Origin: Nitrosococcus oceani ATCC 19707
GTDB taxonomy: Bacteria > Pseudomonadota > Gammaproteobacteria > Nitrosococcales > Nitrosococcaceae
NCBI RefSeq assembly: GCF_000012805.1
Contig: NC_007484.1
Coordinates: forward strand, 3,300,001-3,332,000
Length of the DNA stretch: 32,000 nt
Direction: 5' to 3'
Below, piece after piece: positions 3,345 to 29,186 of this stretch. Position numbers and translations under genes: made by a program. The notes under the pieces are model-generated. The model had not been told where the DNA came from. It did not search any database and saw only the letters and a program-made list of their open reading frames with translations. How positions within the stretch are numbered: the stretch's first letter is position 1; every line of letters starts with the position of its first letter.

Positions 3345-3697
3345 GCTTAGGCTTACATACCCGTTTTATAGCAAGGCCGCCCGATAGGAGTGGCCTCGCT
3401 ATGGAGCAGCGTTGATTATCTGCAACCCAACTGGCGGGAAGCCGTCGGACAGATCGGTGAAGGAATCGGCGGTTCACCTGTACCTTCAGGATAACAAAGC
3501 CTATAAAGATAGATCCCACCTCATGTAACATCACAATGGGACTGAAATGTCCCTACATTGTTGCTCATGAAACCATAAATTCGGTATCCAGTCTCCCTTG
3601 GTTGTTATCCACCGAAGCACCAAAACGCGGCGGAAGCCTTTTACCATGAATTCGCGCTATGATTTTCCCCTTGCCACAAGCGCTGCAACCTATCCTC

Positions 3698-3852
3698 GGG
3701 AGGAGGAGAAGTGATGCCCGTGGAAGGGTGATACCTAATGAGGGCCTTGCGCGGTAAATCGTGGCCAGCCAAAGCACCCGTTGAAGCGCGAATTTGTCAG
3801 ACGGATAAAATTTTGTGCCCACAAAATTGCTATCAGTCATGGCGAAACTCTA
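3698..3852 (-). repeat. ~155-bp repeat family X, copy 1; the adjacent 3671-3699 matches the leader 5' of the RayT remnant
   Basis: Aligns with 7244..7399 (shared GAGTTTCGCCATGACTGAT...GAATTCGCGCTTCAA..GGCTGGCCACGA..AAGGCCCTC..GGTATCACCC..CATCACTTC.CCTCCT on the minus strand). Conserved hairpin 3809-3828 has a different loop in the other copy. Indels break any common reading frame. Confidence 0.6.
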
Positions 3853-3946
3853 AATAGTGAAGGACTCTCTCAACAAGCCCTCACTCCTGACTCAACCTCA
3901 ATTTATTCTCCTGGATAAAAACCAAATAGTTATCCAGGATTGATGT

Positions 3947-6887: not shown

Positions 6888-6963
6888 GGCCAGGTAGCTC
6901 AGTCGGTAGAGCAGGGGACTGAAAATCCCCGTGTCGGCAGTTCGATTCTGTCCCTGGCCACCA
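6888..6963 (+). tRNA. tRNA-Phe (anticodon GAA), CCA encoded
   Basis: GGCCAGGTAGCTCAGTCGGTAGAGCAGGGGACTGAAAATCCCCGTGTCGGCAGTTCGATTCTGTCCCTGGCCACCA. Folds by eye into a cloverleaf: 7-bp acceptor GGCCAGG/CCTGGCC, anticodon loop CT-GAA-AA, T-loop GTTCGATTC. Confidence 0.95.
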
Positions 6964-7243: not shown

Positions 7244-7399
7244 CGGTAGGAGGGGAAGTGATGCGCGTGGAGGGTGATACCCAACCGAGGGCCTTGAGCG
7301 CTAAGTCGTGGCCAGCCCAAGACACCCATTGAAGCGCGAATTCTCCAGGCTGATGAGGTTTTGTAGGAACAAAATCGACATCAGTCATGGCGAAACTCC
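7244..7399 (-). repeat. Repeat family X, copy 2 (immediately 3' of the RayT remnant on the minus strand)
   Basis: Aligns with 3698..3852. Hairpin 7358-7375 (GTTTTGT-agga-ACAAAAT) matches the copy-1 hairpin with the stem conserved and the loop changed. Confidence 0.6.
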
Positions 7400-7552
7400 A
7401 AATTCATGCACCAGCTCGATGATCTTGGCCCCCAGGGCGTGCCAGAGCAGCTTGCCATGACCGCTCTCGGCGGCTTCACGGATTCATAGACCTGGGTGAG
7501 CCATTTGTAATCCCTAGCATCGATATAGCCACGCAGCAAGGTGGCCGCGCCC

Positions 7553-8894: not shown

Positions 8895-9560
8895 TCACTT
8901 TTTGGCCTCCCAAAATGTCAGTAAGTTGAACCACCGCCCCACTGCCTGGACCTCATAGAAGCCCGCGGCAGCCAAATAATCTGGAATTTCCCCGCGAATA
9001 TGGGCAACGAGGGCAGGCATGAATAATTGGGGCCATACGCCTAACCACCATAGGGGGTGGCCCGGCCGGTCAAAATCCACTGCTAGCAAGCGTCCGCCCG
9101 GCTTGAGCACACGATGGATTTCTTCTAATCCCTGCCGTTTCAATTCCGCCGGCAAATGATGCAACATTAAGCTGGATAGCACCACATCAAAAGTTTCGTT
9201 CCCAAAAGGAAGGCGCTCCACAACGCCCAATTTGAACTCCGCTTGACTCTGGGCGCGGGCCGCCTTTTTCCTTGCCAAGGAAATCATGGGAAGAGAAGGA
9301 TCAACGCCTACCACCTTCCCCGAGGGGCCGCTCTTCTCCGCCGCCAATTGTGTCAGCACGCCGGTCCCGCACCCCACGTCCAAAATTTGCTCGCCAGGGC
9401 TCAATTGGGCATGGCGCAGGGTCTCCCGCCGGAACTTCTTTCTCAGACCGACCAAAGCGCACTCCAAATCATAAATGGGCGCTTGCCATTTGAGCACGGC
9501 CCCCCGAGTTTTAGGGGCCACTTCCCTGCTTGAATTCTCCATAGCATTATTCCTATCCAT
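8895..9560 (-). CDS. Class I SAM-dependent methyltransferase (Methyltransf_11/UbiE-like)
   Basis: 221-aa ORF with motif I ILDVGCGTG and DVVLSSLMLHH...LKPGGRLL. Its first ~33 codons lie inside direct repeat A. Confidence 0.8.
   Translation of the reverse strand: MDRNNAMENSSREVAPKTRGAVLKWQAPIYDLECALVGLRKKFRRETLRHAQLSPGEQILDVGCGTGVLTQLAAEKSGPSGKVVGVDPSLPMISLARKKAARAQSQAEFKLGVVERLPFGNETFDVVLSSLMLHHLPAELKRQGLEEIHRVLKPGGRLLAVDFDRPGHPLWWLGVWPQLFMPALVAHIRGEIPDYLAAAGFYEVQAVGRWFNLLTFWEAKK
9460..9552. repeat. Direct repeat A (93 bp) bounding the RM/HipBA island
   Basis: CACTCC...GGCGCTTG.CATTTGAGCACGGCCCCCCGAGTTTTAGGG.CCACTTCCCTGCTTGAAT.CTCCATAG.AT.ATTC recurs at 17193..17285 with roughly 10% mismatches and one 1-nt indel. 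Confidence 0.85.
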
Positions 9561-9583: not shown

Positions 9584-12500
9584 CTATTCCACATGACCCA
9601 TCATCCCTGCAACATCCATTGCCTTGATATAGCGGACGGGGTTTTCTGTGTCTTTTGCAATTTCTTCAAAGTGCCGTTCTCCGCACTTGATCTTCGCTCC
9701 TTCAAGGTGGCGTAAATCATCCCACCACGCGCTGCCTTTGGTCTCAACCACAAAGTAGAGCTTTTCCTCACCGCCATCTTCCACAACGACAGCCCAATCG
9801 GGGTTATAGGAACCGAGCGGCGTTGGCACTTTGAACCACGGGGGCAATTTGGCGTAAACTTTAACTCTTTCGTTCTTCTCCAAGTCTTCGGCGAAGGACT
9901 TCTCCACGCTTCCCGAGTCATACACGACATGGGTGTATACGGATTTTTGTACTTCCAGCGTATTCTTCAGATAGCCTTTCAACTCTTCCTGCTTAAAAAG
10001 TGCCTGGGCATAGCCGTGATCGTCACCGATCTTAGTGTATTTGATGCCGTCAACAAGCGCTAGCCGCTTAGTACGGTTAATCGCCTCGGAACAATAGTCG
10101 ATGAATTGCTGGGGATTGCGCAGGAAGTCCTGAAGCCTTCGGCTCTCCCTGAGTATCTGGACGATACTTTTTCGAGTGAGCTGGGTCTTGTCCTGCAAGT
10201 CGGTAATAATATCGGGCAACTCGATATCATTTTCGTGGATTGTGGTATAGCCGGAAGCGCTGGTTTCCTGAACCCCTACGCCACCTTTACCGATAGCAAT
10301 ATCCGCCTTTCTGAATTGGGCGCGGGTTTTGGTAATCGGCGGGCAGCTTCTTATGGCGTCGGCGCAATCGTTCAGGAGCTTCAGGTTGTCGAACTCCACA
10401 CGGTACGTGGTCTTGTACTTGATCCGCTCCCAGAGCAACCGGAACTCATCGGATTCAAGAACAGCTTCCCGCGTTCGAATGATTTTCCGATCATCGGCGT
10501 TCTTGATATCCAGCTTGCCAGCCAGCTTGCGTAGAACCGCCTGAATATCCGATGTGATTATATCAGTCTGTTCCTCTCCGTGATTCTTGACAAGCTCCTG
10601 CTTGATTTCCTCTGGCAGCTCAAAGTTTCCGTTTTTCAACGCGGCGCGAAGACTGTCCTGCACCTTACCTTTTACATCCACAAATTGCTGATCTTTGAGG
10701 AACTGCCAAATCTTCTCTGACTGTTCCACCCCCAAAGGTGCAACCTCGCCTTGTTCGTTGAGGGTTTGAATGGTCGCGAATTGGTGTGGTTCGACAATGC
10801 CGAAGCGAATACCCGTATCCTGTTCGATCTCTTTTTGCAGGTTATCGGCAAATTTTTCGTAGTTTTCCGTGGCAATTACGGTCAGCGTGTTCACGTCGTT
10901 GCCGCGAAGCCGTTCGCCATTCTGATTGACGCAGAGACGCAGGCCACGGCCAAGGGTTTGGCGTCGCTCCCGTTCGCTTCCCATGTCGCGGAGCGTGCAA
11001 ATCTGGAAAACGTTGGGATTGTCCCAACCTTCCTTCAGAGCGGAGTGAGAAAAAATGAATTTCAGCTTGGTATCAAAGCTCAGTAGCTTTTCCTTCTCCT
11101 TCATAATCAGGTTGTATGCCCGCTCTGCATTGTCGCGGTTCGCCTGATTATTCTCGGCGGTGTCGACAGATCGGCCTTTCTTATCAATAGAAAAATAGCC
11201 GTTATGCACCTCGTCCGCCCCAGCCTCCAGATCAATTTCCCTGAACAGGCTTTGATAATCCGCTGACTTGGCCAGCTTGCGGTATTCCTCCTCGAACATC
11301 CGAGCGTACTTGCCCTTAACAGCGTTACCGTCCTCGTCGTACTGGCGGTAGTGCGTGACACTATCAATGAAAAATAGGCTGAGCACTTTGATTGGCTTCT
11401 TGTTCGCAGCGAACATCAGCTCCTTATCGAAGTGCTCCTTGATGGTTCGCCGGATCATCAAGCGCTTGATTTGGTCGGGATCAACGCCACCAATGGCCTC
11501 GCCTGGTCGAAGCCGTTGATCGAAGCCGTCGCCCTTGACCTCAATGGACTCATTATCTTTGCCACAGGTAATGGTACCCATCTGCATGTTTTCATAAATG
11601 GAGCGGCCTGTGATCTGCTCCAGATCGTCGCCGTCCTCCACGGTTAGGAATTCTCGCCGGACATTCTTGCCGCGCTGAACATCCACTTCCACTTTGGCGG
11701 TAATTGATCCTTTCCGGTTATCCGTGGAGTCCAGCCGGATATAGGGTTTGTTGTGTCCACTGTCGATCTGGAGTGACGCCACCTCAATCTGCTTAACCAA
11801 GCCTCGCTCATAGGCGTCCACGGCATCCAAGCGGAAGGTCATGTGATGCTTGTCCACATGGGTCGCGGAATAACGCAGGGTGCACAACGGATTCATCGCC
11901 GTGAGCGCTTCCTTGCCTTTGCCTGTCAGGCCACCGTCAACGCTTTGTGGCTCATCGACAATAATGATCGGGTTCGTGGCGCGAACAAGGTCAATCGGCT
12001 TTTCACCACCTGTATTCTCGTTTTCCTTGTATAGATTGTTGACATCCTTTTTATTGATCGCGCCGACCGTCGTCACCATGATCTGGATATTGGAACTGGT
12101 AGCGAAGTTGCGCACCTGACCCAGCTTGGAGGAATCATAGAGGAAGTATTCGTAGCCCTTGGCCTTCGGGTACAAGCCTTCAAAATGCTCTTGCGTGATT
12201 TGCAGCGTCTTATAAGTACCTTCCTTAATCGCAATGGACGGCACGACAATCGCGAACTTGGTGAAGCCGTAGTTCTTGTTCAGTTCAAAGATCGTGCGCA
12301 AATACACGTAGGTCTTGCCCGTTCCGGTCTCCATTTCAACGGTAAAGTCTCCGCTGGCTAGCTTCTTGGTAGGCCGCAGGCCATTCTGAAGTTGCACCTT
12401 ACGCAGGTTTTCTTCAATTTCTTCATCAACCAACAAGAGCCTGTTGCCGATACCGAGCTGATTCTCCTCCAAACCCAAAGATAAGTTGAGGCTAGACTCC

Positions 12501-12616
12501 GGCTGGAATGTCACGGTGAATTCAGAGCGGGATATTTCCTGTCCTTTAAACAGACTGACAACCGAGTCTATCGCGGCTTTTTGGTAATCCAGATCGTCTT
12601 CAAATTGGAGTTTCAT
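9584..12616 (-). CDS. res: Type III restriction endonuclease, Res subunit (SF2 helicase-nuclease)
   Basis: 1010-aa ORF. Walker A-like METGTGKT, DEAH-type IIVDEPQ, helicase C motifs (QTLGRGLRL), C-terminal PD-(D/E)XK-like YNPDW.VV......YFVVETKG. Sits directly downstream of mod. Confidence 0.9.
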   Translation of the reverse strand: MKLQFEDDLDYQKAAIDSVVSLFKGQEISRSEFTVTFQPESSLNLSLGLEENQLGIGNRLLLVDEEIEENLRKVQLQNGLRPTKKLASGDFTVEMETGTGKTYVYLRTIFELNKNYGFTKFAIVVPSIAIKEGTYKTLQITQEHFEGLYPKAKGYEYFLYDSSKLGQVRNFATSSNIQIMVTTVGAINKKDVNNLYKENENTGGEKPIDLVRATNPIIIVDEPQSVDGGLTGKGKEALTAMNPLCTLRYSATHVDKHHMTFRLDAVDAYERGLVKQIEVASLQIDSGHNKPYIRLDSTDNRKGSITAKVEVDVQRGKNVRREFLTVEDGDDLEQITGRSIYENMQMGTITCGKDNESIEVKGDGFDQRLRPGEAIGGVDPDQIKRLMIRRTIKEHFDKELMFAANKKPIKVLSLFFIDSVTHYRQYDEDGNAVKGKYARMFEEEYRKLAKSADYQSLFREIDLEAGADEVHNGYFSIDKKGRSVDTAENNQANRDNAERAYNLIMKEKEKLLSFDTKLKFIFSHSALKEGWDNPNVFQICTLRDMGSERERRQTLGRGLRLCVNQNGERLRGNDVNTLTVIATENYEKFADNLQKEIEQDTGIRFGIVEPHQFATIQTLNEQGEVAPLGVEQSEKIWQFLKDQQFVDVKGKVQDSLRAALKNGNFELPEEIKQELVKNHGEEQTDIITSDIQAVLRKLAGKLDIKNADDRKIIRTREAVLESDEFRLLWERIKYKTTYRVEFDNLKLLNDCADAIRSCPPITKTRAQFRKADIAIGKGGVGVQETSASGYTTIHENDIELPDIITDLQDKTQLTRKSIVQILRESRRLQDFLRNPQQFIDYCSEAINRTKRLALVDGIKYTKIGDDHGYAQALFKQEELKGYLKNTLEVQKSVYTHVVYDSGSVEKSFAEDLEKNERVKVYAKLPPWFKVPTPLGSYNPDWAVVVEDGGEEKLYFVVETKGSAWWDDLRHLEGAKIKCGERHFEEIAKDTENPVRYIKAMDVAGMMGHVE

Positions 12617-12634
12617 TTACTTTGAATCCAAATT

Positions 12635-12710
12635 AACCACGGAACACACAGAATACACTGAAAAATATAATGGTGACTCATTTCCGTGTTATCCGTGTTT
12701 TCTGTGGTTT
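12635..12710. repeat. Imperfect inverted repeat (29-30-bp arms) made of CACGGAA-like units, mod-res intergenic
   Basis: AACCACGGAACACACAGAATACACTGAAA (12635-12663) versus the reverse complement of TTTCCGTGTTATCCGTGTTTTCTGTGGTTT (12681-12710). 23 of 29 positions match, 17-nt loop. Confidence 0.85.
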
Positions 12711-12716
12711 ATATCT

Positions 12717-14591
12717 TTACAAGCTGCGTACATGGGTTATACCGCTCTGCTCCAGAATGGCGGCCATGTTGGTTTTCGAAACATCATCGCTGAAGGCGCT
12801 ATCACGGAAGAAGACGTGGGTGTCAGAGCTTGGCGCAAGCTCCCGATGCCACTCGACGATACTTTGACCAATTTCCTCGACTTGATCCTTGTTGATGGAC
12901 TCATCCAGACAAGCGAACAAGACGCCGTAGCCAATGCTGTAGATGTTTTTGCCTAACACTTCACGGCTTTCGATGGGAACAGCAAGGTCTACGCCGCGCT
13001 TAAGAAGAAGTTCATAAAGAATATCATTCTCCGAACGCCCTTCGATCAAGTGCTCCTGTTGAGACAATAGACTTTGTTCTAAGTCTTGCCGATCAGGGTT
13101 CCATGCTTGAATATTCGAACTTGATAGTTTAAAAACTTTAAATCCCTGATCGAACGTCGCATCGGGATTTTCATTGGTGATCTTTTTTCCAGCTTCTTTT
13201 ACTCTTCTTTTACCTATATCTGCGATCGATCTGTACGACTCACTTTCCAGCAACTCAGGCAGTTGCACCATAATAAACCTTCTATTCGAGCCTTCATTGG
13301 CATTTATATTTAGTATCGCATGGGCAGTAGACGCAGAGCCAGCAAAGAAATCCAAAACGATTTCTTCACTATCGCCACCGGTCGAAATACGTAGCATATG
13401 CTCAATTAGGCGGACAGGCTTAGGCGTATCGAATTTGATATCATCAATTAATTCTGAGAGAACTTTCGTTGCCTCTTGTGTATGGCCAACATCTGAGTAA
13501 AGCCAAACTGTTCTAGGTACGACTCCTTTTGCTTTTGATAAGAATTTTTTTAGTCGGGGTGAATTGCTCGTCCCATCTTTACCCCAGTAAATGATATTTT
13601 CTTCGGCGTGTTTCTGGCTCACCTCCCTCGAGTACTTCCATACAGCCGTCTTTTTTGGCCAAACATCCTGCCCAGTATTTGGATTTACTAGCGGGTAATA
13701 CAAATTTGGGCGCTCATCACTATCTTTGTTACACGTGTATGTCGCAGAGTTCCAATTACCCCTCGGGTCATTATCGGGGTTTGTGTAGTTGCTTTTTTGC
13801 CTCTCGTTCATAGGCAACTTAAATGGTCGCCATATCAGTTTATTCTTTGCGTAAACTAATATGTGATCATGGTCGCTGCTAAACCATGTAGCGTCATTGG
13901 ATGGAGATACTTTCTTTTGCCAGACGATACTGGTCACAAAATTTTCTTCACCGAAAATCTCGTCACAAACCTGCCTTAGTGTGGCCACTTCGTTATCATC
14001 TATAGTTATGAAGATCACTCCTTCCTGAGACAGTAGCTGTTTAGCTAATTTCAGTCGCGGATACATCATACTCAGCCAATTCGTATGTTTCCGGCCGGTT
14101 GATTCAGTGTTAGAAGAAAACTTCATTCCCTCATCATCAACTTGCCCTGTGTACTTGAGGTAGGTATCCAGATTCTCCTGAAACTTGTCTGGGTAAATAA
14201 ATTCCTTACCCGTGTTGTACGGCGGATCGATATAGATCATCTTGACTTTGTTGGCGTAGCTCTTCTGAAGCAGCTTCAAAACCTCAAGGTTGTCACCCTC
14301 GATAAACAGATTCTTGGTCGTATCCCAATTAATGCTTTCTTCTGGACAAGGCAGCAACGTCCCTGTGGATGGCGTAAGCGCTATCTGACGAGCCCTTTTC
14401 TTGCCATGCCAATTGAGGCCGTATTTTTCTTCGCCCTCATCTAGCACCTTGGCATCACCAAGCAACTGGTGGAGCACATCGAAATTGACACCGCTCTCGC
14501 TGAAAGCCTCGGGGAACAGCTCTTTCAATCGTTCAATGTTCTCTGAAACGATGTCGGCGCTTTCGCCTTCTTTTGGTTGTATTTTTTTCAT
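12717..14591 (-). CDS. mod: Type III restriction-modification DNA methyltransferase, Mod subunit (N6-adenine)
   Basis: ORF 12717..14627. IYIDPPYNTG catalytic motif and a C-terminal FAGSASTAHA AdoMet motif. Start moved to Met 14591 because the 12 upstream codons are just the translated repeat. Confidence 0.9.
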   Translation of the reverse strand: MKKIQPKEGESADIVSENIERLKELFPEAFSESGVNFDVLHQLLGDAKVLDEGEEKYGLNWHGKKRARQIALTPSTGTLLPCPEESINWDTTKNLFIEGDNLEVLKLLQKSYANKVKMIYIDPPYNTGKEFIYPDKFQENLDTYLKYTGQVDDEGMKFSSNTESTGRKHTNWLSMMYPRLKLAKQLLSQEGVIFITIDDNEVATLRQVCDEIFGEENFVTSIVWQKKVSPSNDATWFSSDHDHILVYAKNKLIWRPFKLPMNERQKSNYTNPDNDPRGNWNSATYTCNKDSDERPNLYYPLVNPNTGQDVWPKKTAVWKYSREVSQKHAEENIIYWGKDGTSNSPRLKKFLSKAKGVVPRTVWLYSDVGHTQEATKVLSELIDDIKFDTPKPVRLIEHMLRISTGGDSEEIVLDFFAGSASTAHAILNINANEGSNRRFIMVQLPELLESESYRSIADIGKRRVKEAGKKITNENPDATFDQGFKVFKLSSSNIQAWNPDRQDLEQSLLSQQEHLIEGRSENDILYELLLKRGVDLAVPIESREVLGKNIYSIGYGVLFACLDESINKDQVEEIGQSIVEWHRELAPSSDTHVFFRDSAFSDDVSKTNMAAILEQSGITHVRSL

Positions 14592-14603
14592 GTTTTTCTC
14601 TTT

Positions 14604-14675
14604 AACCACGGAACACACGGAATACACTGAAAAACCATGTTGTTATTTCCCTGTTGTTTGGGTATTCCGTGGTTT
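14604..14675. repeat. Second inverted repeat of the same family, between the GxxExxY gene and mod
   Basis: AACCACGGAACACACGGAATACACTGAAAAA (14604-14634) versus the reverse complement of ATTTCCCTGTTGTTTGGGTATTCCGTGGTTT (14645-14675). The outer 10 bp are perfect. The right arm overlaps the GxxExxY stop codon. Confidence 0.8.
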
Positions 14676-15057
14676 ACATAACAATTCGTTCAATTTCAAC
14701 CTTGGGATAGTGCCCAAAATTCACCAGCAACCCTAAACGCATGCCAGCTGCTTTTAGGTAATTATGCACCTGCGCCCGATGTTCATCAGCCAAGTTACTA
14801 ATAGCTTTAATTTCAACAATTATTTTGTCATGACAAATAAAATCTGGCTTGTAGGTTTGCTTCAGCGGCACGGATTTGTAAATAAGTATGAGCTCCGGTT
14901 GCGCGATGTAGGCAATTCTTTTCCTTGAGAATTCCCTAGCCAGACATTCCTGATACACCGACTCAAGAAAACCACAGCCCATCTCCCTGTAAACCTCAAA
15001 CACCGCCCCGCGAATCGCGTAACTTTCTTTCTCGTAAATAATTCCTTTCTGTGTCAT
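14674..15057 (-). CDS. GxxExxY protein (PD-(D/E)XK nuclease fold, PDDEXK_3-like)
   Basis: 127-aa ORF with GAVFEVY..MG.GFLE.VYQ..L..E.......Q......Y.......Y..DF......IVEIKA...L...H.AQ..NYLKA.....GLL.NFG, the family signature. Confidence 0.85.
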   Translation of the reverse strand: MTQKGIIYEKESYAIRGAVFEVYREMGCGFLESVYQECLAREFSRKRIAYIAQPELILIYKSVPLKQTYKPDFICHDKIIVEIKAISNLADEHRAQVHNYLKAAGMRLGLLVNFGHYPKVEIERIVM

Positions 15058-15075
15058 TCCGTGTATTCCGTGGTT
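15055..15075. repeat. Solitary arm of the CACGGAA repeat overlapping the GxxExxY start codon
   Basis: Minus strand reads AACCACGGAATACACGGAATG with ATG as the start codon. There is no partner arm within 400 bp upstream. Confidence 0.75.
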
Positions 15076-15438
15076 CCATTAAAGACCCTCCGTGATCTCG
15101 GTAATCCTGTCTTTAAGCTTTTTTACTTTCGTATTCAGATCGACCTGCCTGCCCATTTACTTCTCTTTCTTGAGCTTATTGGCAACTTAGCTGTTATTTC
15201 CGTTGGCCAGTAACATGCGTTCCGCCCCTTATTCCTTTTGGCTTTTCTTGTTGCGCTCCATCCATTTTTCGATGTCGGACTGCTTAAGATTATGATTCCG
15301 TCATTTATCACTTTATCCATCCAAAACGATACGCGAGAGAATAAGAAAATATTGAGCAATCGACAACCGGACGACCCTTTAAAATCTGGTCAAAGCTAGC
15401 CGACCACCCTTCCTGCGATACAGAACGCGCATTTTTCC

Positions 15439-15467
15439 TTGACAAGGAAGCACTAATTCAGTATTTT
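15439..15467 (+). promoter_or_regulatory. Candidate sigma-70 promoter of hipBA
   Basis: TTGACA (15439-15444), 17-nt spacer, TATTTT (15462-15467). Confidence 0.6.
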
Positions 15468-15470
15468 GAG

Positions 15471-15511
15471 TTTTATATAGACCATAAAGAGATTTTATGG
15501 TCTATATAAAA
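15471..15511. promoter_or_regulatory. Perfect 18-bp inverted repeat, probable HipB operator
   Basis: TTTTATATAGACCATAAA-gagat-TTTATGGTCTATATAAAA, located between the -10 and the hipB ATG at 15526. Confidence 0.65.
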
Positions 15512-15525
15512 ACCATTTTAGCACG

Positions 15526-15864
15526 ATGCCAAAGTCCATTGTACGTACTTACTCCCGTTATACCCGCGATGCGTCTGCCTTGCTCGGCGGATTGATCCGT
15601 ACCGCTCGTAAAGAACGTAGGCTCACCATGCAGGAAATTGCCGACCGTGCAGGTATTTCCAGAGGGCTGCTGCAACGCATTGAGAAAGGCGACCTTAAAT
15701 GTGAAATCGGCGCTGTGTTCGAAGTCGCAACCATTGTCGGGATCAAGCTGTTCGAGGCGGATGAAACTACGCTAACGAAGCACTTGCGCCGGACCGAAGA
15801 CAAATTGGCGCTGCTGCCGAAGTCCATTCGCAAGAAATCCAAGACGGTACGGGATGACTTCTAA
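15526..15864 (+). CDS. hipB: XRE-family HTH antitoxin HipB
   Basis: 112-aa ORF with HTH segment LTMQEIADRAGISRGLLQRIEKG. Overlaps hipA by 11 nt. Confidence 0.8.
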   Translation: MPKSIVRTYSRYTRDASALLGGLIRTARKERRLTMQEIADRAGISRGLLQRIEKGDLKCEIGAVFEVATIVGIKLFEADETTLTKHLRRTEDKLALLPKSIRKKSKTVRDDF

Positions 15865-17113
15865 TAAAGAAGCCTTCGTCTGGATTTGGCTGCCGGAAGA
15901 AACGAAACCCATTGTGGCCGGACGGCTAGAAGCAGACAACGGCCACATTCTGTTTAACTACGGCAAGAGCTATCTGGAGCGTATCGGGGATCAACCGCCT
16001 GCAATTCCAATTTACCAACCCGAGTTGCCGTTGAAGGCCGGAGTATTGCCACTGCCGAAAGGATTGACCATGCCCGGCTGTATTCGAGACGCCTCGCCCG
16101 ATGCCTGGGGGCGGCGCGTGATTATCAATAAGCAATTAGGTCTTAAAGGCGCTGGCACGGATACGGCCGAGCTGGGCGAATTGACCTACCTTCTCGAATC
16201 CGGCTCTGACCGGATCGGCGCGCTCGATTTTCAACGCTCACCATCCGAGTACATATCGCGTACGGCGAGCAACGTCAGCATAGAAGAGCTGATCGAGTCT
16301 GCTGACCGTGTCGAAAAGGGCGTTCCTCTTACGCCGGAACTAGATCAGGCATTATTCCATGGCAGTTCTATCGGCGGCGCTCGGCCAAAGGCTTTGATCC
16401 AAGATCAAGGCAAGAAGTATGTGGCCAAATTTTCATCCAGCACCGATCTCTACAGCATCGTCAAAGCCGAATTTATTGCTATGCGACTAGCGGCATGGGC
16501 TGGACTTAATGTTGCCCCCGTTAAACTGGCTAAGGCAGCAAATAGGGACGTGCTGCTGATTGAGCGATTTGACCGTATTCCGCAAGGCAGCGATTGGTCA
16601 CGCAAGGCTATGGTTTCCGCGCTCACGTTGCTTGGCCTCGATGATATGATGGCCCGTTACGCCAGCTATGAAACGCTGGCCGAAATTATCCGTCATCGTT
16701 TTACCGACCCGAAGAATACACTGAAGGAACTTTTCTCTCGGCTCGTTTTTAATATTCTGTGCGGCAATACCGACGACCACGCGCGAAACCACGCCGCGTT
16801 TTGGAACGGCGAGGCACTGACCCTGACCCCTGCCTATGACATTTGCCCCCAAGGCCGCACGGGCAATGAAGCGTCACAGGCTATGTTGATTGCAGGTAAC
16901 AACAACCTCAGTCAACTGAAAACCTGCCTTGAAACTGCACACAATTTCCTACTCTCCGCGGAAGATGCCCAGGCTATCTTTGGAAATCTGACTGCCGCCA
17001 TCGAACAGCATTGGGATGCCGTCTGTGAAGAAGCCGAATTGAATGAAGTGGATAAGAGGTTCTTGTGGGGACGACAGTTTCTAAACCGCTACGCCACGAT
17101 GAATCTCAACTAA
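15854..17113 (+). CDS. hipA: HipA-family serine/threonine kinase toxin
   Basis: 419-aa ORF. N-terminal coupling domain (VWIW.......VAGRL), GSSIGGARPKA P-loop-like motif, catalytic NTDDHARNHA. Confidence 0.88.
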   Translation: MTSNKEAFVWIWLPEETKPIVAGRLEADNGHILFNYGKSYLERIGDQPPAIPIYQPELPLKAGVLPLPKGLTMPGCIRDASPDAWGRRVIINKQLGLKGAGTDTAELGELTYLLESGSDRIGALDFQRSPSEYISRTASNVSIEELIESADRVEKGVPLTPELDQALFHGSSIGGARPKALIQDQGKKYVAKFSSSTDLYSIVKAEFIAMRLAAWAGLNVAPVKLAKAANRDVLLIERFDRIPQGSDWSRKAMVSALTLLGLDDMMARYASYETLAEIIRHRFTDPKNTLKELFSRLVFNILCGNTDDHARNHAAFWNGEALTLTPAYDICPQGRTGNEASQAMLIAGNNNLSQLKTCLETAHNFLLSAEDAQAIFGNLTAAIEQHWDAVCEEAELNEVDKRFLWGRQFLNRYATMNLN

Positions 17114-17192
17114 TACAAATTGTTCGCCAGCGCTTAATTGGGCATGGGATAAAGTCTCCCATCAGGGTTTCTTCCTCAAACTAACCAAAATA

Positions 17193-17287
17193 CACTCCGC
17201 GTCGTAAAATGGCGCTTGTCATTTGAGCACGGCCCCCCGAGTTTTAGGGACCACTTCCCTGCTTGAATCCTCCATAGAATCATTCAT
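17193..17287 (-). pseudogene. Direct repeat B: decayed duplicate of the methyltransferase 5' end
   Basis: Minus strand reads MNDSMEDSSREVVPKTRGAVLK*QAPFYDAEC, against MDRNNAMENSSREVAPKTRGAVLKWQAPIYDLEC at 9560. It has a TGG to TGA change and a 1-nt deletion. Its ATG at 17287 lies 10 nt after the hemS stop. Confidence 0.8.
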
Positions 17288-28415: not shown

Positions 28416-29186
28416 AGGTAGCGCGTCATGCTTTCCGTTCCATTTCGTCACCAACACGGCAATTGTTAGGCAGCCAGCAGAGGCAAGCAAGTGCTTCAGC
28501 GTATGGCCACTCAGATTTTCGCCAAGCAGTTGGAAGATTTCAGCATCATAATACTCGACTACTTTCGCCAATACATAGAAACCAAGAGCGATCAGCAGGA
28601 GTCCATTTTGCTCAAAGCGCGACCGGTATAGCGTGAGCAGCATTGCAATCATCGCAAGGGGCATGAACTGCACCCAGGCATAGAATCTCAGGTCATCCAT
28701 GAGATGCCAGTAAACCACTGAACACGCCCCAATCAGAATGGCGGGATAAAGAAGTCTTTGAACTAGGCGCCGATCAAGGTACTCGCCGAGGAGCGCGACG
28801 AACAAACCCATGAAACCAACTGTCATCGGGAGTCTGTCCCATACCAGCGTATCGTTGTCAGGAGCCCAGTGATAATATGCAGACCCGACACCAACAAACG
28901 ATACAGCAATGAAAAACGCCAGCCAGGCAGGCAGGACGTCCCTGGGCAAGCGCCCCAACGATGCACGCACACCAAAGATACCTATCAAGACGAAGGGCAG
29001 ATTCGATACGACATCGAAGAAATTGGGAATGCCCAAGAATGACCGGCGATCGACGAAGGCATGGTACGCCAGATCCTGAGGGATTGGAGCGAGCAAAAAC
29101 ATCAACCCAATGGTGCTGAGGAAGAATCCAAGAAGGATGGCTAGGCGCCAACCGGTTGCGCCAACGCTCGAAGAATTAGTTTCCAT
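28410..29186 (-). CDS. Ceramidase-like polytopic membrane protein (alkaline ceramidase/phytoceramidase superfamily-like)
   Basis: 258-aa ORF, about 7 TM helices, with YH.F.D.R...GIPNF..V.SN..F, GS.YYHW.P.N..L.WDRLPM, SGH.LKHL motifs that I associate with bacterial ceramidase-domain proteins. Confidence 0.5.
   Translation of the reverse strand: METNSSSVGATGWRLAILLGFFLSTIGLMFLLAPIPQDLAYHAFVDRRSFLGIPNFFDVVSNLPFVLIGIFGVRASLGRLPRDVLPAWLAFFIAVSFVGVGSAYYHWAPDNDTLVWDRLPMTVGFMGLFVALLGEYLDRRLVQRLLYPAILIGACSVVYWHLMDDLRFYAWVQFMPLAMIAMLLTLYRSRFEQNGLLLIALGFYVLAKVVEYYDAEIFQLLGENLSGHTLKHLLASAGCLTIAVLVTKWNGKHDALPA

Follow-up and report, generated by a model that had tools for sequence, protein, structure and literature searches.

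The type III restriction-modification (RM) operon of Nitrosococcus oceani ATCC 19707 raises the question of why long hairpins, built from short repeated boxes, stand in the gaps between its genes. We analyzed a 32,000-nt stretch of this genome (hereafter the window, to whose positions all coordinates refer), in which a small gene of the GxxExxY (PDDEXK_3) family precedes the host genes mod and res. In the explanation that we consider best, with a probability of about 0.72, the hairpins are inserted copies of a mobile palindromic family that occurs both in forms carrying a GxxExxY gene and in forms lacking an open reading frame (ORF), and do not belong to the RM operon itself. A comparison with Rfam 15 gave nothing relevant at E<=10 for 12000-15600, and neither the window nor 18 related loci contained a match that reached the gathering score. 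The literature was searched by family name, by accession, and by arm sequence, with most subscription journals left uncovered; only primers and unrelated matches turned up and no paper describing such a palindromic element, and the family is apparently undescribed.

Layout of the Operon and Its Arms

A sequence-only reading of the window had reported five copies of a repeated arm in this operon, and all of them were found where it had placed them, at 12635-12664 (+), 12680-12709 (-), 14604-14633 (+), 14645-14675 (-), and 15047-15075 (-). A search with AACCACGGAAYACAC, allowing up to 3 mismatches, returned 10 matches in the window against 1.0 expected, a number reached in 0 of 100 shuffles. Eight of the 10 matches fall inside the five arms, and isolated near-matches outside the operon occur at 2349 and at 28713, the latter within an ORF. 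The claim that the arms are confined to this operon holds inside the window but not in general, as arms are present in many bacterial phyla (see below).

Profile matches confirmed the gene calls made from the sequence, that is, the GxxExxY gene at 14677-15057 (14674 with the stop codon; 127 aa; TIGR04256, 1e-40), mod at 12720-14591 with its true ATG at 14591, and res at 9587-12616 with its ATG at 12616, all encoded by the minus strand. In the direction of transcription, the order is arm, GxxExxY, arm, loop, inverted arm, mod, arm, loop, inverted arm, res. The GxxExxY gene is the cargo of a cassette that opens with a 5' arm (written >) at 15044-15075 (core match 15047-15075; AACC-ACGGAA TA CACGGAA TGA CACAGAA AGG), continues with a second, decayed > arm at 14645-14675 (AACCACGGAATACCCAAACAACAGGGAAATA), and is closed by a < arm at 14604-14633, which reads UUUUUCAGUGUAUUCCGUGUGUUCCGUGGUU on the mRNA, giving the layout > ORF > <. 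An ORF-less hairpin occupies the mod-res gap at 12635-12709 (arms at 12709-12680 and 12664-12635, loop at 12679-12665); like the cassette arms, it is listed on the minus strand. The spacing described earlier was reproduced, with the hairpins ending 12 nt before the ATG of mod and 18 nt before that of res, and the distal arms starting in the stop codon of GxxExxY and 7 nt after that of mod.

Other parts of the description needed correction. Both inverted-pair hairpins lie in the gaps to which they had been assigned, but the one at 14604-14675 is decayed: its arms are 71% complementary, and the outer 13 bp alone pair in the centroid fold. Positions 14604-14623 pair better with the solo arm at the start of GxxExxY (19 of 20 complementary) than with the local partner, and the copy of the 14645-14675 arm in another N. 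oceani strain (locus L207) keeps recognizable boxes. The solo arm does overlap the GxxExxY start codon (15057-15055), but it does not end there, extending instead past the ATG into the first codons; relative to the L207 copy, this start codon has been shifted by a 1-nt insertion in the arm. An identical copy of the GxxExxY protein is found in GCA_000155655.1, and its closest named relatives are from N. oceani and N. watsonii.

Homologous Operons Without Hairpins

Many relatives of Res share 80-94% identity with it, and we compared six of their loci (81-94% identity). Each of them is a canonical SNF2 helicase-DUF4391-mod-res operon, and no three-box arm was detected anywhere in the six. In four of the six, only 9-12 nt (TAAGGAnnnnnnATG) separate mod from the res gene that directly follows it. 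The corresponding gap in the window is 100 nt long and contains the 75-nt hairpin, whose insertion displaced the native AAGGA Shine-Dalgarno sequence of res. Similarly, DUF4391 and mod are separated by 0-50 nt in the homologous operons versus a 0.56-kb cassette in the window, where a remnant of the 3' end of the DUF4391 gene (15078-15200, minus strand) represents the original upstream edge of the cassette insertion site. Since closely related operons are free of arms and have tight gaps, the hairpins and the cassette are shown, as judged by sequence comparison, to be insertions and not native parts of the RM operon.

The junctions of the inserted DNA (TAAAGATATA / AACC...GGTT / AATTTGG) reveal no clear duplication, and their T-rich and A-rich flanks extend the palindrome. 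L207, a 93% identical paralogue, carries a hairpin between the helicase and DUF4391 genes and the same GxxExxY cassette before mod, with no hairpin before res; comparison with it gives no element boundaries, the whole locus being homologous. In another organism (L145), a GxxExxY cassette lies directly before res (74% identical over the first 221 residues), and in L025 and L171 an arm follows mod.

In these last two loci (L171:4874-5366 and L025:2000-2709), the solo arm after the type III mod gene leads into another inserted ORF, which by eye is RhuM-like in L171, where the arm forms the N-terminus MNHEKHEK..., and DUF1016/YhcG-like in L025. In L328 and L329, whose Res proteins are 91-94% identical to that of the window, a GmrSD-type gene is located between mod and res, so that unrelated genes, too, have repeatedly been inserted at the mod-res junction.

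Arms at GxxExxY Genes

The association was also examined in the reverse direction, using 80 metagenome loci picked solely by similarity to the GxxExxY protein, 75 of which could be evaluated for flanking repeats. Nearly all of the GxxExxY genes have one arm upstream and an inverted arm downstream. Flanking inverted repeats, scored by local alignment with a threshold of at least 15, were present at 60 of the 75 GxxExxY genes versus 0 of 96 control ORFs from the same loci. At least one arm was found within about 200-260 nt of 63 of 64 GxxExxY genes, which bears out the idea that the arms are the boundaries of a GxxExxY mini-cassette. The layouts of these 64 genes were > ORF < (31), > ORF >< (7, the type found in the window), >< ORF >< (5), and rarer forms. 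In those genome loci selected by the motif that contain GxxExxY, an arm lies upstream of the gene, its end 1-13 nt from the ATG. GxxExxY genes are thus nearly always linked to arms, and the mini-cassette is a general property of the family.

The cassettes are placed tightly among other genes. The upstream neighbor shares their strand in 43 cases versus 8, with median gaps of 18-19 nt; about one quarter of the neighboring ORFs match Pfam families of the RM or bacteriophage exclusion (BREX) type, and cassettes recur between an ABC ATPase and its FtsX-type permease. At other loci, the sequence of the right flank before the downstream ATG is often AAAAAGGA. No other protein family recurred as cargo or as an arm-led ORF among 438 arm-led ORFs and 10 wide inverted pairs. 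Alternative cargo families, such as the four-helix-bundle intervening-sequence protein, were considered and discarded, as they did not recur among the arm-led ORFs.

Dispersal of Arms and Hairpins

A scan of one genome per species with the 19-mer AACCACGGAAYACACRGAA gave at least 120 matches, against about 17 that we estimate to arise by chance. The matches listed include Verrucomicrobiota, Planctomycetota, Kiritimatiellota, Acidobacteriota, Desulfobacterota, Bacteroidota, Ignavibacteria, Hydrogenedentota, and others, together with Beta- and Gammaproteobacteria and the genera Nitrosomonas, Gallionella, and Wenzhouxiangella, and some of the genomes listed have several arm loci (at least four each in OW818698.1 and CAZJCL01). 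Within genome loci, arms are either solitary or paired in hairpins with loops of 7-150 nt; 38 strict three-box hairpins were counted in these loci, and a looser detector (loops of 20-200 nt) counted 153 over all loci. The neighbors are unrelated housekeeping genes, with the top Pfam family, PDDEXK_3, accounting for just 3 of 150 neighbor ORFs, and solo arms also stand upstream of genes unrelated to GxxExxY. The sequence-only reading had named random scatter of the motif over unrelated intergenic sites as an outcome that would speak against it. This outcome was seen in part: the motif does occur at many such sites, but its scatter is not random, since it also tracks GxxExxY genes.

Hairpins are also found inside coding sequences and in arrays. 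In-frame copies interrupt PglX-like, HsdR, and PglZ-like proteins (L033:1133-1436, L108:7161-7230, L047:3993-4140, and L115:6286-6484) and always use the frame that yields the peptides TTE.TE...SV.SVCSV (TTE.TE...SV.SV). In L108, most of the 24 extra residues coincide with a gap in the alignment to the solved BrxX structure, immediately ahead of methyltransferase motif I, and in L047 the extra residues map to the inter-domain linker of HsdR, as judged against a solved homologue. Tandem hairpin arrays with conserved loops and spacers occur at L127:517-2250 (118-nt unit), L039:3145-5887 (about 110 nt), and L033:2045-2580 (150 nt). The 118-nt unit of L127 flanks a GxxExxY gene on both sides, and the repeated unit of L033 includes both the last part of the upstream gene and the beginning of GxxExxY.

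The three-box arm was also present in at least 120 stretches of IMG/VR viral contigs. Four of these (L229, L244, L248, and L269) have 4-6 co-oriented solo arms each, with a conserved flank (ggagaggtgcCCACGGAA...), and no GxxExxY gene was found in the stretches fetched for them. Taken with the hairpin-free related operons, the dispersed, arrayed, and in-frame copies fit the earlier suggestion of an insertion resembling a miniature inverted-repeat transposable element (MITE), and they support the view that the ORF-less hairpin behaves, by its sequence distribution, like a MITE or a REPIN, a hairpin formed by paired repetitive extragenic palindromes (REPs).

Anatomy and Covariation of the Arms

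In each arm, an outer (A)ACC precedes three boxes of 7 nt, all of the type CACGRAA and separated by 2-nt spacers. The resulting period is 9 nt, and not the 8 nt or so proposed earlier. A complete element comprises two arms in inverted orientation and hence six boxes. Across elements, the boxes are mostly CACGAAA (147) or CACGGAA (35), with CACAGAA, CACCAAA, CGCGAAA, and CACAAAA among the others. Within one element all six boxes change in concert, and the three boxes of an arm stay alike.

In an alignment of arm pairs (n = 35), 83.7% of the cells were paired versus 77.9% in shuffles, none of 500 of which reached the observed value, and slid controls gave at most 50%; changes on both sides were seen in 22 of 34 arm pairs. 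The spacer dinucleotides did not covary between arms, and the mismatches between arms showed no sense-strand excess of G·U (50 G·U versus 69 A·C). A swap of spacers between arms in a shifted register was also considered and occurred at chance level (s1=t1 in 15, s1=t2 in 14, and s2=t1 in 12 of 42). Where an arm is annotated as an N-terminal extension, it is read in differing frames, as MEPRNTRNTQK or as MNHExHExHEK. The combination of concerted boxes, spacers that do not covary, and no G·U excess points to boxes that are recognized, or to a DNA repeat evolving in concert, and speaks less for selection on an RNA helix or on coding.

The GxxExxY Protein

The GxxExxY protein of the window scored 138.6 and 138.5 bits with TIGR04256 and PF13366, versus cut-offs of 35 and 22, respectively. 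Five residues (D72, E82, K84, Q96, and Y100) are invariant in an alignment of 40 sequences, and we take them to be the PD, ExK, and QxxxY motifs of RecB-type nucleases. Its AlphaFold model is confident (pLDDT 93.5), and the best fold matches are Cas4 SSO0001, lambda exonuclease/RecE, and the nuclease domains of AdnAB, with weaker matches to Hjc-type resolvases. GxxExxY is thus predicted to be a RecB/Cas4-like PD-(D/E)XK nuclease and, to judge from the model, its fold matches, and the invariant residues, it looks active. When the GxxExxY profile was run against PDB sequences, T7 endonuclease I was the only match and was not significant (E=0.67).

GxxExxY proteins are 63-70% identical across Gamma- and Betaproteobacteria, Desulfobacterota, Verrucomicrobiota, and Planctomycetota, and identity of this order across five phyla or classes suggests horizontal spread. 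The family comprises 12,383 clusters at 50% identity. "Multiple transfers" have been noted for PF13366, and a 2012 survey of PD-(D/E)XK proteins gave the function of GxxExxY/PDDEXK_3 as unknown (PMC3424549).

Proposed Mechanism and Alternative Explanations

If the hairpins belong to a mobile palindromic family, its ORF-carrying form would enclose or adjoin a GxxExxY gene of about 125 aa, and its ORF-less form would be a MITE- or REPIN-like hairpin of 60-150 nt. In the window, one GxxExxY cassette occupies the former DUF4391-mod gap and one ORF-less hairpin the mod-res gap, the elements having presumably colonized the intercistronic gaps of a horizontally acquired defense operon. We infer that GxxExxY mobilizes the element. 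The six boxes might be the recognition sites of the element's own nuclease, a suggestion that we make tentatively and consider possible rather than probable. Spread could then begin with a cut in or close to the palindrome, after which host repair or recombination would use the arms of about 30 bp as homology; this would amount to a homing-like copying of the ORF between hairpins. The transcribed stem may, in addition, draw the flanking cistrons together, so that an insertion would have little polar effect. A broader proposal, which we put forward as doubtful, is that GxxExxY proteins are the nucleases of an unrecognized class of mobile element, a self-contained palindromic cassette whose boxes would serve both as recognition site and as homology for copying, and whose ORF-less hairpins would spread in a REPIN-like manner across phyla and phages, with a preference, within RM and BREX loci, for the gaps between cistrons and also for coding linkers.

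Several points weigh against this explanation. No target-site duplication can be defined at the two window junctions, and a PD-(D/E)XK nuclease is by itself incapable of strand transfer. We know of no GxxExxY protein that has been shown to transpose, bind, or cleave. Of the arm loci fetched, only about 7 of 120 from genomes and 1 of 120 from viral contigs include a GxxExxY gene, and a dependence of the ORF-less arms on GxxExxY in trans is assumed. Furthermore, the many co-oriented solo arms of viral contigs look more like regulatory sites than like transposon ends, and the concerted variation of the boxes could reflect descent of whole elements combined with gene conversion.

The placing of the hairpins exactly in intercistronic gaps, on the transcribed strand and 12-18 nt before the next ATG, would also be expected if they punctuated the operon at the RNA level, with RNase III cutting, a block to 3' exonucleases, or translational control setting the GxxExxY:mod:res ratios, as in processed 23S intervening sequences or Correia elements. 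Several other observations agree with this, including the tight packing and co-orientation of the elements with their neighbors, the recurrent right flank before the downstream ATG in other loci, and the displaced AAGGA Shine-Dalgarno sequence of res, such that the fold may matter for res translation. Moreover, the RNA folds of the two window hairpins (-26.5 and -25.4 kcal/mol) are better than those of shuffles (z about -3.2 and -3.3), as are those of the L207 hairpins (z about -6 to -7). The stem predicted for hairpin 1 of the window has about 24 bp and is interrupted by internal loops, and that of hairpin 2 has 13 bp in the centroid fold. We nevertheless regard RNA-level punctuation as unlikely. 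Homologous operons do without any hairpin, one of the window arms is decayed, and the element also occurs inside coding sequences and in arrays. A stem does not demand that the three boxes of an arm be alike, and neither an excess of G·U over A·C mismatches nor covariation of the stem-internal spacer dinucleotides was seen. No terminator-like site or U tract was found at either hairpin on the minus strand, where the flanks are T-rich on the 5' side and A-rich on the 3' side, and scans for terminators and promoters gave nothing at the hairpins beyond chance. The sequence-only reading had raised the possibility of a built-in RNase III or stability device setting mod:res stoichiometry; as the reason for the hairpins, this is not supported, given operons with 81-94% identical Res that manage without them, the lack of G·U bias, and the spacers that do not covary, while a side effect of the hairpins on the transcript is possible.

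The arms could instead be sites for a host or phage factor other than GxxExxY that reads CACGRAA at a 9-nt spacing, with GxxExxY being regulated by that factor or hitch-hiking on its sites. Three equal boxes per arm with free spacers resemble iterated protein sites, solo arms precede unrelated genes too, and in the viral stretches, of which at least 120 carry an arm and 1 of 120 has GxxExxY, the arms are often co-oriented solo copies at gene boundaries, although the orientation of genes in high-GC viral contigs is not settled by ORF lists. Against such a factor, no candidate emerged from our analysis and none is known to us, the box sequence varies between elements while the linked GxxExxY is the constant partner, and a host factor conserved across at least 10 phyla is less economical than one encoded by the element, making this explanation improbable in our view. 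A third scenario, and a very improbable one, is that in which the hairpins are attC-like sites, and GxxExxY with its hairpin is an integron-type cassette placed in secondary sites by an integron integrase. Many copies are indeed imperfect palindromes of 60-150 nt that start with TTTAAC and end with GTTAAAA, like R''/R' boxes, and follow a promoterless ORF; hairpin arrays exist, and the host phyla are ones with reported chromosomal integrons. However, attC sites keep structure and not sequence, whereas here the whole arm sequence is conserved across phyla, and the three-box arm does not match an R/L-box layout with extrahelical bases. The window copies, despite their AAC/GTT ends, end in GTTTATA and GTTTACA and not in GTTRRRY, a complete 5' arm stands ahead of the ORF, where attC recombination would leave none, and copies sit in frame within genes. 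No integrase was found among the seven window genes flanking the operon that were scanned, neither the rest of the window nor the other loci having been screened for one.

Comparison With Known Elements

The mobile palindromic family that we favor finds its closest analogue in organization, by our comparison, in REPINs and the REP-associated tyrosine transposases (RAYTs). In both, palindromic hairpin doublets are dispersed in intergenic DNA and are sometimes clustered, repeat type and gene go together, and inverted copies of the repeat stand on both sides of the associated gene (here 60/75 versus 0/96, with > ORF < in 31/64). The gene, however, is a PF13366/TIGR04256 PD-(D/E)XK nuclease here and an HUH/Y1 transposase in the case of RAYT, and GxxExxY is multi-copy and horizontally spread (63-70% identity across phyla). 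Unlike REPs, which are lineage-specific, the arm is recognizable across phyla, and it is made of three 7-nt boxes instead of one REP palindrome.

The intervening sequences of 23S rRNA (Leptospira, and S23p in Coxiella) likewise hold a small ORF within stem-forming inverted repeats and spare the host function, a likeness that fits the main > ORF < layout. Their sites are rRNA helices, in contrast to the intercistronic gaps and protein-coding linkers occupied here; their ORF belongs to PF05635 and not to PF13366, and the mismatch pattern of the present arms gives no sign of selection at the RNA level. Rickettsia palindromic elements (RPEs) are also palindromes of about 100 nt found between genes and in frame, where their peptide lies in a tolerated loop. 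RPEs are not known to have an associated ORF or to occur outside Rickettsia; their sequence is unrelated to the CACGRAA element and lacks the three-box architecture.

Correia repeat enclosed elements (CREE) of Neisseria and other MITEs are short intergenic elements with terminal inverted repeats that are co-transcribed with their neighbors, and their hairpins are possible RNase III substrates that can alter mRNA stability. Two features of MITEs are seen here, namely inverted repeats bounding a short non-coding unit and insertion polymorphism at orthologous sites, and GxxExxY cassettes share their arms with the ORF-less hairpins, as would an autonomous relative if GxxExxY has the role in mobility that we infer. 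On the other hand, Correia elements duplicate a TA target, contain an IHF site, are confined to few hosts, and are not known to have a cognate cargo gene, whereas no target duplication is definable here and the cognate gene encodes a nuclease and not a DDE transposase. Free-standing homing endonucleases, such as those encoded by the seg and mob genes of phage T4, offer a further parallel, since they are small nuclease ORFs located between host genes and co-oriented with them, and they have been proposed to spread by cleavage and recombinational repair, much as we propose here. Those genes lack flanking inverted repeats and ORF-less derivatives, and they target host genes, while the only sequence common to all sites in the present case is that of the element's own arms.

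Implications

The linkage to arms suggests what the large GxxExxY family does, and the family would gain a testable biology, with GxxExxY as the enzyme of a selfish palindromic element. If correct, this would explain why GxxExxY genes stand between RM genes and why insertions are found within PglX and HsdR. It would also account for odd short "hypothetical proteins" and for N- or C-terminal extensions such as MEPRNTRNTQK, TTEHTE, and SVCSVCSV. For RM biology it carries a caution, in that hairpins of this kind in an operon would be parasites and not designed regulators, even if they may still alter the expression of mod and res.

Other Repeats in the Window

The helicase gene and most of DUF4391 are absent from the window operon, which is abutted by a hipBA pair (15526-17110). 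A 169-nt direct repeat (80% identical) is present at 9384-9552 and 17117-17285; the former copy is the 5' end of an S-adenosylmethionine (SAM)-methyltransferase gene (8898-9560, minus strand), and the latter is decayed and lies beside hemS. These copies bracket a 7.7-kb res-mod-GxxExxY-hipBA block, as if the block had been inserted with duplication of the 5' end of that gene. In addition, a repeat of about 165 nt (78-82% identical) occurs at 3697-3860 and 7244-7405, the second copy being located about 280 nt downstream of tRNA-Phe (6888-6963), and this copy may be the remnant of an integrated element. Finally, an 80-nt direct repeat (86% identical) is found at 2216-2295 and 2777-2856, 561 nt apart.

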